64,000 nt of DNA from a virus (lineage: Duplodnaviria; Caudoviricetes): positions 19,820 to 83,819 of the IMG/VR virus record IMGVR_UViG_3300037755_000886; one strand, written 5' to 3'. Position numbers and translations under genes: made by a program. Below, in pieces: positions 5,856-39,996 of this stretch. The notes beneath the pieces were generated by a model. The model saw only the letters and a list, made by a program, of their open reading frames with translations. It did no database searches and had not been told where the DNA came from. Position 1 is the stretch's first letter. Each line of letters starts with the position of its first letter.

Positions 5856-5863
5856 GACGTTCC

Positions 5864-14883: not shown

Positions 14884-15311
14884 CCCCCTGGCACCGCGGC
14901 AACGCCGAGGCGGACGCGCACGAAAACCGGTCGTGGCTCGTCGGCCATTTCAAAGCCAGCGACGACATCCGCTACGACGAGGACGTCGAGGTGAAGGTCA
15001 GCTCGCACCCCGCGGGGGACGAGCGGGCCGAGTGGTCGACCGGCGAGTGGAGGCGCACGTTCTTCATGGTGATGACCGGCAAGTGGCGCCTCGACCTCAA
15101 GCTCGAGGACGGCGACAACACCGAGACGGTCATCGCCGGGCCCGGGGACTACGTCGTCTGGGGGCCGGGCGTCGCGCACACCTACCGGGCTGAGGCGGAC
15201 TCGACGGTGATCACCGTGCGGTGGCCGTCGGTGCGGCCGACGCCGCGGCGGCCACCCTCGCGCGCAAATCTCCGGTCCAGCGGGTCCCTTCTGCCGCCTG
15301 ACCTGCGGTGA
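14880..15311 (+). CDS. Cupin-fold protein
   Basis: WLVGHF...HPAGDERAEW...GDYVVWGPGVAHTYRAEADSTVITVRWP. Confidence 0.8.
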   Translation: MTPWHRGNAEADAHENRSWLVGHFKASDDIRYDEDVEVKVSSHPAGDERAEWSTGEWRRTFFMVMTGKWRLDLKLEDGDNTETVIAGPGDYVVWGPGVAHTYRAEADSTVITVRWPSVRPTPRRPPSRANLRSSGSLLPPDLR

Positions 15312-19047: not shown

Positions 19048-19071
19048 CATCCCACGTTCCATCCCACGTTC
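19048..19071. repeat. Integrase arm-type sites, left (CATCCCACGTTC x2)
   Basis: Perfect tandem 12-mers at 19048-19059 and 19060-19071. Confidence 0.8.
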
Positions 19072-19160
19072 TCCGCGCGGAGGCGCGCGAACACGCGCGT
19101 TGCGCCTCGCCCTCGCGCGCTACCGTCTGCGTACGCGCGCTGGTGCGCGGTTGTGCTCTT

Positions 19161-19207
19161 GACTCTTAATCCGCAGGTTCTGGGTTCGAATCCCAGGGGG
19201 CGTACCA
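19161..19207 (+). other. attP core = 3' half of tRNA-Lys(CTT)
   Basis: CTCTTAA anticodon loop, CTGGG-TTCGAAT-CCCAG T-arm, GGGGCGT-A-CCA end; 5' half does not pair properly. Confidence 0.85.
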
Positions 19208-32455: not shown

Positions 32456-33867
32456 GGCTTCCTCCTGAGCGTCTTGCCGACCACCTGGGCCGGAGCGGGC
32501 GCAGGCTTCGACGTCCGGGGCTGCGGGGCCTGGTTGGCGGCGGCGGCCAGGCCGGGCGTGGCCGCGATCGCGGCCTGCATCGCTCCCCGGTGGGGCTGAT
32601 GTGCGTACGACAGGCACGTGACCAACAGATTCGTGGTGCCCCGCGGTGCGCCGGTGGTGGAGTGGAGCGCAGCGGACGCGCTGGTCCGGGCATCGATGCC
32701 CCAACCGTCGGCGATCGCCTTCATCGAGTGGCCCTGCGAGACCAGCAAGGCCTGCGCCTTGGCCAGCGACTCGCCGGTGACACCCGCCGCCGCCAGACGC
32801 TCGGGCGACGCGACACCCTCACCCAACCTGGTCATCAGTTCCGCCTCGGCAGCCCCACCGAGCGGCTCGGGATCGGGGACCGCCTGGGGCTCATCGAAGA
32901 CCGGCGCGGCCGCCATCATGGCGTCCGTCGGGGCGGCGCCGGCCGCCCGATGGCTGTCGTAGTGGGCCATTGCCGCCGGGTGCGTCGCCCGCAGGTTTTC
33001 CTCGGTGCGCGCCATCGCCTCGGCCGCGTACGCATCGGTTTCAGTGTGCGGCAGCGCGGACGCCCACACCCGCACGTTCGCTACCGGGTCCGATTGGCCC
33101 AGAGGATCCGTGGTCGACTGCGAGGACGCCGGGCGGCCCGCGGCCGCGCCCAAACCCGGCACGGCCCGACCGGCGGTGGCCTGCGGCTCGGGCGTCGACG
33201 GGGCCAACGTGACGTCCAACTCGGCGGCACAGGACGGCGTCGACGTCGCGGTCAGCTCCGGGTCCCGGCCGAGGATCGCCGTCAACTCCCCGACCGTGAT
33301 CACGTCGGCGTCCTTGATGGCCATGTGGGTCCCGTAGTCGAGGACCCCGCACGCCTCGACGACGGAGACCCGGTAGATCTCCCAGTCGCCGGGCTCGGTG
33401 CCCTTGACGTACCCGGCCTCGCCGGGGAGGGGCAGGCGCTCGGCGACGAACGAGTGGCCCCGAGCGTTGCGCCAGGTGGCGGAGGTCTCGGTGAGGCTGA
33501 GGCTGTCGGGGGCGGGGCGGAGGTGGCTCGGTGCCGCCGTGTTGGTGTCAGTCCGCGTGCGCGGTGTCGTGGCATCGGGCGCAAGCTCGACCGCGGACGG
33601 CATGGCTGCCGCAGCCTCGACGATCCCGTCCCGCCACCTGCCCATCGCCTCAAAGTCCAGGCGGTCACCCACCCTGACATCGACGATCCGCCGCTGGAGC
33701 TTCGCGATCGTGTTCTGCCGGTAGTCGGTGGACACGTCGATCTGACTGGCGAGCTGACCGAGCTCGGCCTTGCGGAGCCCCAACCCGGCCACGTACGCAG
33801 CGGCCTCCTCGCGGGACTGCATCGCGTCGAGACGCCCACGCACCTCGACCGGATCGAAAGCGCTCAC
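32452..33867 (-). CDS. Multidomain hypothetical protein, plasmid/ICE-like
   Basis: Coupled to DUF4913; segment LRATHP.AMAHYD..R..G..P.DAM..AAP.F resembles actinobacterial plasmid proteins (recall only). Confidence 0.55.
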   Translation of the reverse strand: MSAFDPVEVRGRLDAMQSREEAAAYVAGLGLRKAELGQLASQIDVSTDYRQNTIAKLQRRIVDVRVGDRLDFEAMGRWRDGIVEAAAAMPSAVELAPDATTPRTRTDTNTAAPSHLRPAPDSLSLTETSATWRNARGHSFVAERLPLPGEAGYVKGTEPGDWEIYRVSVVEACGVLDYGTHMAIKDADVITVGELTAILGRDPELTATSTPSCAAELDVTLAPSTPEPQATAGRAVPGLGAAAGRPASSQSTTDPLGQSDPVANVRVWASALPHTETDAYAAEAMARTEENLRATHPAAMAHYDSHRAAGAAPTDAMMAAAPVFDEPQAVPDPEPLGGAAEAELMTRLGEGVASPERLAAAGVTGESLAKAQALLVSQGHSMKAIADGWGIDARTSASAALHSTTGAPRGTTNLLVTCLSYAHQPHRGAMQAAIAATPGLAAAANQAPQPRTSKPAPAPAQVVGKTLRRKP

Positions 33868-34172
33868 GACGAACCGCCGATCCCGACGTCGGCCAACCAG
33901 GCCAACACCATCGGGCGAATCGCCGGGTCGGCGAGCGTGTCACGCACCACGCGGCCCTCACAGCGCGGGTCCGCCGAGGACTGCCACTCGTCGAGCGCCT
34001 CCTCGATGAGCACGTCGAGCGGGTGCGGGGCCGGCAGCTCCGGCTTGGCGTCGACCACCACGACGTCGACGTCACCGGCGGCGATCGCGTCGACGACATC
34101 GGGGGGCAGACGACGGTAGGCCTTGCTAGAGCGGGGGTGGGAGTGGGTGAGTGGGGCGTTGATGTCGATCAT
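33864..34172 (-). CDS. Hypothetical protein
   Basis: GGAGG-like RBS, GTGA overlap with next gene. Confidence 0.55.
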   Translation of the reverse strand: MIDINAPLTHSHPRSSKAYRRLPPDVVDAIAAGDVDVVVVDAKPELPAPHPLDVLIEEALDEWQSSADPRCEGRVVRDTLADPAIRPMVLAWLADVGIGGSS

Positions 34173-34284
34173 GGGGGCCTCCGGGGGCGGTGACGGGGAG
34201 TGACGGTCAGGTCGGTGGGCGGGGGAAACGGTGGATGGTTGGGATCGGGGGGTTTCGGGGGATCGGGGGGTGGGGGTCCCATCC

Positions 34285-34403
34285 GATGTGAACTATGTGA
34301 AATGTGCAGGTCAGGGCTGGTTTCTGCGATGTGAAGTGGCATGTGAGGCGCGGTGTGAACTCACATCACCTCACAGCGCGACTTCACATCGCCGGTTCAC
34401 GTC
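34285..34403. repeat. Array of ~10 (G/T/C)ATGTGA(A/G)-like 8-mers, direct then inverted (clt-like)
   Basis: Direct copies at 34285, 34294, 34301, 34328, 34340, 34352; inverted at 34360, 34370, 34383, 34396; 12-bp perfect IR 34326-37/34381-92. Confidence 0.85.
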
Positions 34404-36469
34404 CGGTCGACGACGTCACGGCGACGCACCGCGCGACGGTTGCCGTGCTGACGGGACGGCTCGATCGGGACCTTGGCGTCCCGGAGCTGCTCAACGAGCG
34501 CCTCAACGTCGACACCGAGGCGGACCGTGAGGTCATCGACCGGGACCACGTTCTCGTCGCCCATCGCATCGAGCACCCGGGCCAGCAGGTCGCCGGTCTC
34601 CTTGGCCAGCTGCACCTTCGGTGGTGCCGGCGCCCGTCGGACCAGATCGACGCCGAGGGCCCCGATGCGCTCGTGGTCCTGCTGGCTGAACAGGTAGGTC
34701 TTGACCTGCTGGATGCCCTTGTGTGCCTGGAAGCCCGACGGGTTGACGAGGCAAACGCCCTGGTAGTCGTCGGGCCAGCGGCTCGTGTCGTAGCCGTCAC
34801 CCACCCGGCCGGTGCCGAGGACCAGGTTCGAGTCGGCGGCGTTCATCGTGCGGAACGCCACCCGGATCCCGAGCGATGCCTGTGCGCCACCGAGGGTGTC
34901 GGAGTCGAAGCGCTGGCCGGCGATGATCGGGACGATGCCGCCGGAACGCACCATCTGTGACAGGCCCATGACCCGCTCCTGGATCAGGGACCCGTGCTTG
35001 CGGTGGGCGACCAGGAAGTTGAGCTCGTCGATGATGACCGGAACCAGGGGCAGCCCGAACTCGGGGTTGCCGGTCACGGCCGGGGTGATCTGGCCGTGCG
35101 GCATGAGTCTGGGGTCTTCGCGGCGCAGGCTCGAGATCAGCTTGGCCCGGTCCTCGCGCATCCCGTAGACGACGTCCAGCATCTCCAGGCACCGCTTGGC
35201 GCCGTCGTCACCGCACCCCTCGCCGGACCACAGGACCGCTTTCTCGTACATCGAGAACCCGCCCTCGCCCTTGCCGTCGTGGTACAGCGGCGTGGCCCGC
35301 GGGTCCAGGACCCCGGCGGCGAGAAGAGCCAGGACCAGCGTGGACTTCCCGTAGCCGGGAGCCGAGCAGATCCATGCACCGGAGGTCCCCGGGAGGACCA
35401 GGCCGTAGAGGTCCCCGAGGACCGTGGTCCCGACCGGGACCGGGTCCCACATGCTGAAGGTCCCGAGGTCCGCGAGTGGGGACCGCACGGGGTCCGCGGT
35501 CATGGGGTCCTCGTTGAAGATCGTGAGGAGGACCTGCCCGGCGTGTCCGGCCCTGGACAGGAGAAGGCGCTGCTCAGCGACCCGAAACGCCGAGGCCAAC
35601 TCCTCCCGCTTGGCGAGGACCTTGGAGGCCGTGGTCCCCTCGGGGAGGTCGATGAGGCCCTCCCAGCCCTCGGGTCCCCGGTCCCGGAGATACATGCCGC
35701 CAACGGTCATGGTGCCGGGGAAACTGGCGGCCGTGAAGCTGGCGACGACGCGGTCCGAGCGGACCAGGGTGCGGGCCGGGTCCTCCGATCCTGCGGTCCT
35801 CACGGGACCCGCGTCCGGGTCCGGGTCCCCGTTGGGCCGGCCGTTGTGGATGAGGACCGCGAGGACCCCGGCGGCGAGGACCGCACGGAGGACCGGGGAG
35901 ACCTCGGGGGACACGATCAGGAGGACCGCGGCGAGGACCGCGGCGAGGACCGCGCAGGTCTTCCACGTTCGCTCGTTGCGGGTCCGGTGGCGCTCCTTGC
36001 GCTCGTACTGCCGGGCCCGCCCGTTCTTGTTCTCGGCGGCGTGGCGCTCCATCGCCAGGGTCTCGGCGTCGATCGCGTAGCGGACCAGGTGAAGGGAGAG
36101 CCGCCACCCGCCCCGAACCGCCCACCCGACTGGGCGGACCGCGTACCCGCGCTTGATCCCGTGGTAGGCGGCCTGGTTGACCCCGTACCGCCCGGCGTGC
36201 GTCACGTTGCGCCGGACCCCGCTCGCGGTCTTCGCCCACGGCGGCAGGATGGGGAGCATCGCCGGGGCGACCCGGCCCGAGTCCTCGGCGTTGACATCCG
36301 GCTCGGCGACCACCGACACAGGCGGAGGGGGCAGGGTGTCGAGCTCGACCGTGTCCTCCGGATACGGGTCCCGCGGGTACGCCTGCCCCAGATAGATCTC
36401 CTGGTCGTCACCGCGTTTGAGGAGGTTCAGGGCGCGGCGGCCGTTCTGGTGGTCCGTGGTCGCGGTCAC
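34397..36469 (-). CDS. traB: FtsK/SpoIIIE-family conjugative DNA translocase (TraB/TraSA-like), 690 aa
   Basis: N-terminal TM pair; Walker A SAPGYGKST; Walker B VIIDELNFL; RSGGIVPIIAGQR; RVAFRTMNAADSNLVLG; short C-terminal wHTH-like domain; GTGA-coupled start at 36469. Confidence 0.88.
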   Translation of the reverse strand: MTATTDHQNGRRALNLLKRGDDQEIYLGQAYPRDPYPEDTVELDTLPPPPVSVVAEPDVNAEDSGRVAPAMLPILPPWAKTASGVRRNVTHAGRYGVNQAAYHGIKRGYAVRPVGWAVRGGWRLSLHLVRYAIDAETLAMERHAAENKNGRARQYERKERHRTRNERTWKTCAVLAAVLAAVLLIVSPEVSPVLRAVLAAGVLAVLIHNGRPNGDPDPDAGPVRTAGSEDPARTLVRSDRVVASFTAASFPGTMTVGGMYLRDRGPEGWEGLIDLPEGTTASKVLAKREELASAFRVAEQRLLLSRAGHAGQVLLTIFNEDPMTADPVRSPLADLGTFSMWDPVPVGTTVLGDLYGLVLPGTSGAWICSAPGYGKSTLVLALLAAGVLDPRATPLYHDGKGEGGFSMYEKAVLWSGEGCGDDGAKRCLEMLDVVYGMREDRAKLISSLRREDPRLMPHGQITPAVTGNPEFGLPLVPVIIDELNFLVAHRKHGSLIQERVMGLSQMVRSGGIVPIIAGQRFDSDTLGGAQASLGIRVAFRTMNAADSNLVLGTGRVGDGYDTSRWPDDYQGVCLVNPSGFQAHKGIQQVKTYLFSQQDHERIGALGVDLVRRAPAPPKVQLAKETGDLLARVLDAMGDENVVPVDDLTVRLGVDVEALVEQLRDAKVPIEPSRQHGNRRAVRRRDVVDRT

Positions 36470-36612
36470 GGCGCGCTCACCGCGGTGATGCAGCAGCTGG
36501 CGCCGGGCCGGACGATCGGCGCCGGCGGGTTGGTGATCAGCAACACGAGGCCGATGGCCCACGTGATCAGCCACACGGTGGCCAGCAGGAGCGGGGGCGG
36601 ACGGTTACGCAT
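36466..36612 (-). CDS. Small membrane protein (48 aa)
   Basis: TM LLLATVWLITWAIGLVLLI; overlaps both neighbours. Confidence 0.55.
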   Translation of the reverse strand: MRNRPPPLLLATVWLITWAIGLVLLITNPPAPIVRPGASCCITAVSAP

Positions 36613-37558
36613 CGGGGGTCTCCTCCATGCGGGCACGGGCGAGGGGCAGGATCTGGAGGCGGACCCGGTCGTTGTTGACCCGGTGCCCCTTCTTGCGCAG
36701 GGCCTCGGCCAAGGGCTTCCAGCTGGACAGCACGCCTGGATCGGCGGCGGCCAGTCGGCAGGCGACTGCGGCAAGCTCGTCGTCGGTCAGCGCCGCCTTG
36801 GTGGCCGGCCGGCGCGCCGGGGGCCGTTTGGCCGGGGCCGGCCGGGTGACCCGCGGGCGTTCAGGAGCCTCCGTCACCTCGACCGGTGCCGGGCCGGTGG
36901 GCTCCTCCTCCTGCTCGTCGACGTCGATCCCGGCGGCCGCGGCGATGATCCGGTACAGCTCCCGCTTGCGCGCCGGCGCGGCAGCGAGCGATCCGTGCCG
37001 GTCGGTCAACCGGGCCAGGAACCGGCGGCGCTCCAAGTCGAGGGCCTCGGCGTACGAGGTGATGCCCCACACCCGCATGCGGCGCCACAGGCGGAGCGTC
37101 GGCCACGGCGCGCACACCCAGCGGGCCAGCGGGATCCGGTCGGCGACCTCAACGAGGCGGGCCGTCATCGTGGCCTTGGCGGCCTCAACAGCGGCGGCGA
37201 ACAGGGCGGGCAGGGCGGCGTGGCCGAGGATCCCGAACAGCCCGGTCTTGCCGGCGACGTTCAACGCGATCGTGACGCCGATGAGCGCCCACGCGAACCA
37301 GCGGAGCCAGGCGACCTTGCGCTCCCCGCGGGTGAGAGCGAAGTCGAGGCCGGTGAAGAAGGCGATGGCGCCGTCAACGCTCGCGGGCAGCAGCCACGGC
37401 CGGTCCCATCCGTCGGCCGCGGCGACGGCGGCGACGTTCGTGAACGAGCCGATGGCGCCGAACGCTCCGAGGGCGGCGACACCCGTCAGCATGACGGGGA
37501 GCAGCAGGTCCCGGGAGACGCCCGAGGGGCGGACGCGGTCGAGAAGCGCGGCGGTCAT
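36605..37558 (-). CDS. DUF2637 / Spd-like membrane protein of actinomycete conjugative elements
   Basis: Four TMs, WLLPASVDG, then DRIPLARW..APWPT.RLWRRMR.W.ITSY. Confidence 0.8.
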   Translation of the reverse strand: MTAALLDRVRPSGVSRDLLLPVMLTGVAALGAFGAIGSFTNVAAVAAADGWDRPWLLPASVDGAIAFFTGLDFALTRGERKVAWLRWFAWALIGVTIALNVAGKTGLFGILGHAALPALFAAAVEAAKATMTARLVEVADRIPLARWVCAPWPTLRLWRRMRVWGITSYAEALDLERRRFLARLTDRHGSLAAAPARKRELYRIIAAAAGIDVDEQEEEPTGPAPVEVTEAPERPRVTRPAPAKRPPARRPATKAALTDDELAAVACRLAAADPGVLSSWKPLAEALRKKGHRVNNDRVRLQILPLARARMEETPDA

Positions 37559-39527: not shown

Positions 39528-39572
39528 GGGGCCTCCGGGAGCGAGGGGGGTGCGGCATCAGACGTGGCCATA

Positions 39573-39629
39573 CATGCAGTGTCAACACTACATAGCTGCT
39601 ACCGTACCATGCAGTGGACTCACTACATA
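39573..39629. promoter_or_regulatory. Twin operators CATGCAGTG-N4-CACTACATA overlapping divergent promoters
   Basis: Copies at 39573-39594 and 39608-39629, each a near palindrome; TTGACA on minus 39585-39580; TACCAT on plus 39605. Confidence 0.8.
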
Positions 39630-39681
39630 CGGGCCCACGAGATCCGTTAGCGGGTGACTACCGTCAGGAGGTCAGCGGGCC

Positions 39682-39996
39682 GTGACAGCGAGGGGCCGGA
39701 TACGGTCCTGTGCCGTGGCCCCCACGCGACCGCTCCTCAGTGACCTGATCAGTGCGCGGGAAGTGGCCCAACTACTTGGACTCTCGGGACCAACGACGGT
39801 CAGCGTTTACCGGACCGCCAGGCGACCCGACGGCACGCTCCGCTACCCCGACTTCCCCCCTCCCGTGCTCCCCCGCCACGACGACCCGACGAGCGGTCAG
39901 TACTGGTGGCGGCCAGACATCCTGAAATGGCGCGCCAAGCACCCAGCGATCGGGCGCCACCGATCCGACGGCGACGATGTCACACCCCCCTCGTAG
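39682..39996 (+). CDS. AlpA-like HTH regulator divergent from transfer operon (Kor-like)
   Basis: LISAREVAQLLGLSGPTTVSVY...DFPPP...W.RPDILKW. Confidence 0.75.
   Translation: MTARGRIRSCAVAPTRPLLSDLISAREVAQLLGLSGPTTVSVYRTARRPDGTLRYPDFPPPVLPRHDDPTSGQYWWRPDILKWRAKHPAIGRHRSDGDDVTPPS

Follow-up and report, generated by a model that had tools for sequence, protein, structure and literature searches.

An array of repeated octamers that begins inside the stop codon of a phage-borne traB gene is, by analogy with plasmid transfer loci, probably the cis-acting loading site (clt) of the TraB protein which that gene encodes. On balance we favour treating it as a further case, using a new word, of a site type already known; its phage carrier is unusual yet not unprecedented, pZL12 being a published precedent. 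The array lies in a window of 64,000 nucleotides, the whole stretch of DNA analysed here and the one to which positions refer unless stated otherwise. The window was taken from an IMG/VR virus record of 83.8 kb (the contig), which is 90% complete according to CheckV, and the contigs of this locus come from sediment metagenomes.

The minus strand carries, from 63.8 to 41.3 kb, genes for the large terminase, portal, major head protein, minor tail protein, tape measure and endolysin, and a module that encodes TraB and a DUF2637 membrane protein and includes the array continues in that direction, from 39.5 to 32 kb. At 19.2-20.6 kb, a gene for a tyrosine integrase adjoins a tRNA-Lys-like fragment. 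Since structural genes and the integrase with its tRNA fragment are present, and no repeats mark a nested element, we conclude that the carrier is a temperate tailed actinomycete phage and not a plasmid. We also considered whether the module is a nested AICE bounded by att repeats of its own, and rejected this, as flanking direct repeats were not found there. ARAGORN called the fragment as tRNA-Lys(CTT) at 19133-19207, beside the integrase gene, with a canonical 3' half and an irregular 5' half; the window holds no second copy, and the fragment is likely to be an attP core copy of the end of a host tRNA.

Pairing of a DUF2637 gene with traB recurs on actinomycete plasmids. The DUF2637 protein of the phage was also considered as a candidate SpdB2 and set aside, having no BLASTP similarity to SpdB2 of pSVH1. 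SpdB2 homologues on actinophages have been remarked upon (PMC4447253), and FtsK-like genes have been recorded for Streptomyces phages (PMC13587820). Where the leftward module faces away from a rightward 104-aa gene (39682-39996), the spacer holds two copies of ATGCAGTG ... CACTACAT at 39565-39630, which look like an operator for the module's regulator and use a word unlike that of the array.

The traB open reading frame is intact, and in its longest form it reaches 36574 and encodes 725 aa. Searches of the protein against Pfam and NCBIfam gave weak matches only, to a DprA winged helix at the C-terminus and to an EccC fragment; PF01580 fell below threshold on this TraB and is present in four homologues. 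The protein matches phrog_1358, an FtsK/SpoIIIE-like family of PHROGs, at 7e-17. By tblastn it is 28% identical to the traB products of pSVH1 and pSG5 (E 3e-17 and 3e-19, respectively), and a pairwise alignment with pSVH1 TraB (28% over 444 aa, E 1e-25) starts in the linker, spans the motor and extends into the C-terminal domain. Among twelve TraB homologues with 41-61% identity, the Walker A (G-x-GK) and Walker B (DE) motifs are invariant in 12/12. An AlphaFold model has a RecA-type motor, a C-terminal domain and, at residues 150-210 counted on the 690-aa form, two long hydrophobic helices. The best solved-structure match found by Foldseek was the FtsK motor on double-stranded DNA (E 1e-12, prob 1.00), followed by the conjugative coupling protein TcpA. 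Sequence matches and the predicted model together indicate that the gene product is an intact, probably membrane-anchored FtsK-type motor of the TraB/Tra family. GGACC-rich words cluster at 35300-35960, in the part of traB coding for the membrane segment (GGAGGACC, eight copies; CGGGGACC, nine copies), and a 39-nt repeat family lies within the gene at 35307, 35862 and 35919; the GGACC-rich clusters may reflect repeated Ala, Val and Leu codons.

TraB proteins bind the 8-bp repeats of clt through helix α3 of a winged helix-turn-helix domain (PMC4170104; PMC3583192; PMC5133688). Folded alone with AF2, the last 72 residues of the phage TraB gave a pLDDT of 88.9. The structural matches of this domain were mostly winged-helix proteins, chiefly DNA-binding regulators (MarR, IclR, ArsR; Z 6-7), and a DprA_WH match, below the curated cut-off, was obtained in 7/11 TraB homologues. 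FtsK gamma was absent among the listed fold matches of the C-terminal domain, which were generic winged helices. VEALVEQLRD, the helix that occupies the recognition position, has an acidic and hydrophobic character, and the basic wing SRQHGNRRAVRRR is conserved. Among the homologues, P0003-P0008 have the wing SR(Q/G)HGN(R/Q)RAV and the helix DVExLVxxLR in common, and P0009-P0013 end in different tails. Because the predicted recognition helix has this character, reading of DNA would rest largely on the basic wing, a point that we counted against the clt reading; if the modelled winged helix reads DNA at all, a large share of that task probably falls to the wing.

About ten octamers, six direct and then four inverted, had been described at this locus in the initial annotation, with the last overlapping the traB stop codon. 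Ten positions are indeed present between 34285 and 34403 (Table 1); six start on the plus strand and four on the minus strand, and the last (34396-403) covers the tca at 34397-99. The count of ten stood only in part, however, because the third copy (34301-08), the weakest, with two mismatches, overlaps a conserved 9-mer at 34306-14 (the box, described below) and is better read as part of it. That leaves nine octamers and one box, and the final layout over 119 bp, read from the traB stop codon, is four octamers in traB sense followed by five inverted ones. The perfect 12-bp inverted repeat that had been reported (GCGATGTGAAGT, 34326-37; ACTTCACATCGC, 34381-92) was found and extends to 15 nt at 93%. 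The array is also AT-richer than its surroundings, as had been noted, with a GC content of 54.6% at 34285-34403 versus 69.8% in the whole contig.

Table 1. Coordinates of the traB locus, its octamer array and neighbouring features (window positions).
Feature	Position	Strand	Remarks
Downstream 102-aa gene	33864..34172	-	ATG after GGAGG; no family match
Repeat pair GGGATCGGGGGGT	34241..34271	.	two exact copies 18 bp apart; G-rich tract between array and 102-aa gene
Octamer GATGTGAA	start 34285	+	exact copy
Octamer TATGTGAA	start 34294	+
Octamer AATGTGCA	34301-08	+	weakest, two mismatches; overlaps GCAGGTCAG at 34306-14
Octamer GATGTGAA	start 34328	+
Octamer CATGTGAG	start 34340	+
Octamer GGTGTGAA	start 34352	+
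Octamer GATGTGAG	34360-67	-	traB sense
Octamer GCTGTGAG	34370-77	-	traB sense
Octamer GATGTGAA	34383-90	-	traB sense
Octamer GACGTGAA	34396-403	-	traB sense; over traB stop codon
Inverted arm, part B	34285..34301	+	tandem pair GATGTGAA, TATGTGAA beyond box
Box CTGACCTGC in traB sense (= GCAGGTCAG on + strand)	34306..34314	-	+83 from traB stop
Inverted arm, part A	34328..34359	+	GATGTGAA, CATGTGAG, GGTGTGAA; orientation opposite to proximal arm
Long imperfect palindrome from both arms, 67 nt	34326..34392	.	includes perfect 12-bp inverted repeat
Proximal arm	34360..34403	-	GACGTGAA, GATGTGAA, GCTGTGAG, GATGTGAG in traB sense
traB, FtsK/SpoIIIE-type dsDNA translocase	34397..36469	-	recorded form 690 aa; predicted membrane helices, motor, C-terminal winged helix
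Winged helix-turn-helix, last 72 residues of TraB	34400..34615	-	α1-β1-α2-α3-β2-wing-β3; very basic wing SRQHGNRRAVRRR
DUF2637 membrane protein gene, directly upstream of traB	36605..37558	-	PF10935, 4e-17

Exact copies of GATGTGAA occur three times in the 83.8-kb contig, all of them inside the array. With one mismatch or fewer there are 7 copies in the 119 bp and 23 in the other 83.7 kb, counting both strands, an enrichment that is far above expectation (lambda 0.033; Poisson P = 7.7e-15 for 7 copies). A composition-aware scan of all 150-bp windows placed the array as the second strongest octamer cluster of the contig. When the octamer was counted across the whole analysed stretch, the total was 24 against 24 expected from shuffles. 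Thus, the array is a point site and not a genome-wide signal.

Sites of the clt kind consist of a 7-9-bp word, in direct and inverted copies, within ~100-200 bp of non-coding DNA that lies beside, 3' of or overlapping the gene of a translocase with a C-terminal winged helix. At the phage locus nine copies fall within 119 bp, the first octamer sits on the stop codon (34397-99), and the translocase ends in a winged helix in the predicted model. The array begins inside the traB stop codon and is held by a 224-bp intergenic region between traB and the 102-aa gene; its DNA is non-coding, with no start codon upstream of 34172 in that gene's frame. By analogy with DC2 of pWTY27, the GGGATCGGGGGGT pair may represent a second class of repeat at this locus, or it may belong to the leader of the 102-aa gene. 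CRP-type sites (TGTGA-N6-TCACA) were sought in the array and rejected, since no pair has the N6 spacing.

We ran one cluster-finding routine on 12 plasmid traB loci from Streptomyces, Kitasatospora, Amycolatopsis and Pseudonocardia. As a positive control, the routine ranked the GACCCGGA cluster of pSVH1 first, the copies of which are experimentally defined TraB recognition sequences (PMC4170104; PMC5133688). An octamer cluster was present near the traB stop codon in all 12 plasmid loci; homologous traB loci without arrays, which the initial annotation had named as grounds for abandoning the clt reading, were therefore not encountered among the plasmid homologues. The cluster started at -8 to +36 bp of the stop codon in 10/12 loci and was top-ranked in six of those, and in pSG5 and pPaSha2 the best nearby cluster lay ~230-250 bp downstream of it. 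Each group of plasmids had its own word: GACCCGGA, CCCCCTAC, ACCTGGAC, CCCATACA/CCCAGAC, GACGGTTYG or GCTATCGATAGC. These word classes track the classes of TraB C-terminus across the 12 loci, a correspondence that is confounded by relatedness; pSVH1, pSG5 and L128 share both word and tail, as do L124-126.

The closest likeness can be drawn in detail with pSVH1, in which the GACCCGGA copies begin directly after the traB stop codon, first in gene sense and then inverted. Both loci have 8-10 copies of an 8-bp word, sense then inverted, over ~120-200 bp from the traB stop codon, both have a CTGACCTGC box embedded among the inverted copies, and the two TraB proteins have the same domain order at 28% identity. 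The words differ, however (GACCCGGA in pSVH1, GATGTGAA, with 37% GC, in the phage), the box is at +146 in pSVH1 and at +83 here, and the TraB winged helix of pSVH1 is unrelated in sequence to that of the phage. The carriers also differ, one being a 12.6-kb rolling-circle plasmid and the other an integrating tailed phage.

Of the pWTY27 clt, 16 bp lie within the tra gene and a further 159 bp follow it; the translocase TraA binds this site in vitro, and deleting the site lowers transfer ~1000-fold (PMC3583192). Compared by its published description, that site likewise enters the 3' end of the translocase gene (by 16 bp there, by one octamer over the stop codon here) and combines two repeat classes with inverted repeats, as the phage locus may do, whereas its words are of 7 bp, TGACACC and CCCGCCC.

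The KOPS of bacterial chromosomes is an 8-bp oriented word that is read by the C-terminal winged helix (gamma) of chromosomal FtsK, and it is spread across the whole chromosome with a strand bias. An oriented 8-bp word and an FtsK-type motor with a C-terminal winged helix are common to that system and the phage locus; unlike the chromosome-wide KOPS, the GATGTGAA word is confined to one 119-bp site. As far as it is described in PMC4487206 and PMC3583192, pZL12/phiZL12 (Zhong et al. 2010) is a tailed-phage genome with a tra locus used for conjugal transfer. According to those accounts it resembles our phage in being a tailed-phage genome that carries a tra locus, and differs in being maintained as a plasmid with ParAB, whereas our phage encodes a tyrosine integrase next to a tRNA-Lys fragment that resembles an attP.

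The box provides a further connection with plasmids. It emerged from alignment-free comparison: 8/12 plasmid loci have an exact CTGACCTGC at +74 to +155 from the stop codon, oriented like traB, and two more have it with one mismatch. The exact-box loci (L001, ~4595; L002, ~3095; L003, ~3585; L124-L128) include pSVH1, pSG5 and six others, on plasmids of Streptomyces and Kitasatospora; an Amycolatopsis plasmid has the box with one mismatch. The background is low, with four other occurrences in 76 kb of pooled plasmid loci on both strands and, in the contig, three occurrences per 168 kb of strands, two of them besides that of the array; the chance of an exact, correctly oriented box in the 224-bp spacer is ~0.004. 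Among six unrelated lineages the box is the most widely shared 9-mer of the spacer, level with the codons of Walker B, which served as a coding control. It is flanked by inverted copies of the local word in every locus, and it stays constant while recognition words and TraB tails differ between carriers. At the level of sequence, the box links the phage spacer to plasmid clt regions through shared organisation, beyond analogy alone. No description of the box was found in the literature searched, and a string search gave unrelated primer matches only.

One plasmid in the comparison, Pseudonocardia alni pPaSha2 (locus L004; CP052773; 42 kb), has a DUF2637-FtsK pair and, ~1.1 kb downstream, an annotated holin, and it may be a phage-plasmid. 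Its layout after traB has the next gene 25 bp after the stop codon and the box at +288 in the opposite orientation.

The clt reading is supported because an intact translocase, a word array at its stop codon, and a layout and box that match plasmid traB loci, including pSVH1, are found together. The earlier proposal of a cis transfer locus thus gains support of two kinds, from architecture and from homology of organisation. Counting against it is the carrier, a tailed phage, which may have no need of clt-type transfer. If the clt reading is correct, the winged helices of a TraB hexamer would read the GATGTGAA words and the TraB ring would assemble on double-stranded phage DNA at the array. ATP hydrolysis could then pump the circular, excised or replicating phage genome through a membrane or a septal cross-wall, so that it reaches an adjacent hyphal compartment or mycelium. 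With the octamer arms opposed, loading would be possible in either direction, and the palindrome that they form may additionally end the traB transcript.

We considered whether the array is instead read by another protein of the module, which might be the DUF2637 tail, a product of the downstream genes, or a repressor for which it would be the operator of the downstream operon. The array does lie upstream of the next gene (ATG at 34172), and the C-terminal tail of the DUF2637 protein is helical and basic. However, scans detected an HTH or other DNA-binding family neither in this tail, nor in the 102-aa protein, nor in the other neighbours covered, and the operator-like repeats at 39565-39630 use a different word. 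The array starts in the traB stop codon, a placement like that in pSVH1 and pWTY27, whose sites are proven to be bound by the translocase, and pSVH1 and pSG5 have such arrays without a DUF2637 gene annotated beside traB. A reader other than TraB is unlikely on this evidence.

Alternatively, the region could act at the RNA level only, as a hairpin that terminates or stabilises the traB transcript, with the octamers a by-product of the palindrome. The 151-nt stretch around the 67-nt palindrome has a strong predicted fold (dG -59.4 kcal/mol, z -3.5) and sits exactly between two genes. Nevertheless, an intrinsic terminator scan revealed neither a U-tract nor a terminator-like site, the main stem leaves out the stop-codon copy and the tandem pair at 34285-34301, and a hairpin needs no word repeated nine times. 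Rfam gave sub-threshold matches to miRNA precursors only, which fits a plain hairpin, and the plasmid loci repeat the word pattern using unrelated words. A purely RNA-level function is accordingly improbable, and a terminator role may coexist with a clt role. A sigma-70 promoter scan found none.

Iterons and ParR/omega-type centromeres are likewise built of short direct and inverted words in an AT-richer spacer. The array matches that description, but a replication-origin or partition site of the phage is very improbable here, given that scans of adjacent genes turned up no rep or par family, the phage replication genes are >30 kb away, and in place of plasmid maintenance genes the element carries an integrase together with an attP-like tRNA fragment.

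Returning to the clt reading, we looked for relatives of the locus. This TraB clade is rare and divergent, with 12 clusters among 5.8 billion proteins. Related loci were not found in genome, viral or metagenome contigs with the TraB protein, a TraB alignment or a winged-helix alignment as queries, pattern-based scans found no clade member in 185,579 species-representative genomes or IMG/VR, and tblastn of TraB against 50,697 phage records gave no match. A scan of IMG/VR for three ATGTGAA copies returned >118 matches, nearly all of low GC and none beside a TraB homologue, and these were dismissed as chance. The locus itself was recovered from two other sediment metagenomes. A contig from the second metagenome is identical over 34327-34503, which covers seven octamers, and one from the third, over 34179-34787, has ten differences, their positions mostly unlisted; both variants diverge by 2-7% elsewhere in traB. 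The identical contig does not single out the array, because the adjacent 3' end of traB is identical too. These variants show persistence of the locus and no special constraint on the array. The suggestion that the module is maintained and not decayed is supported by the intact reading frame, the Walker motifs kept in the twelve homologues, and the presence of the locus in these metagenomes.

For this rare and divergent clade, GATGTGAA is a concrete, testable candidate for the TraB recognition word. An integrating tailed phage joins the elements in which TraB and clt look like a complete pair, and this is relevant to the question of whether actinomycete phages can travel through mycelium as naked DNA. 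The box may matter more than the array, as its 9 bp are conserved where clt words and TraB tails have diverged completely, and it offers a handle on how the TraB ring engages a closed circular duplex. A possible, if doubtful, extension is that the box is a common clt core, read by a shared host factor or by a conserved part of TraB, and marks where double-stranded DNA is engaged or processed. Were that true, the phage would use TraB and clt to shift its genome between hyphal compartments without virions.

Further strong local octamer clusters were recorded elsewhere in the contig. Ten copies of GCGCGCAA lie at contig position 15151, 4.7 kb before the window; within the window there are five copies of ACAAACCA at 5857 and six copies of CGCGCGTA at 19057, the latter adjoining the attP-like site.
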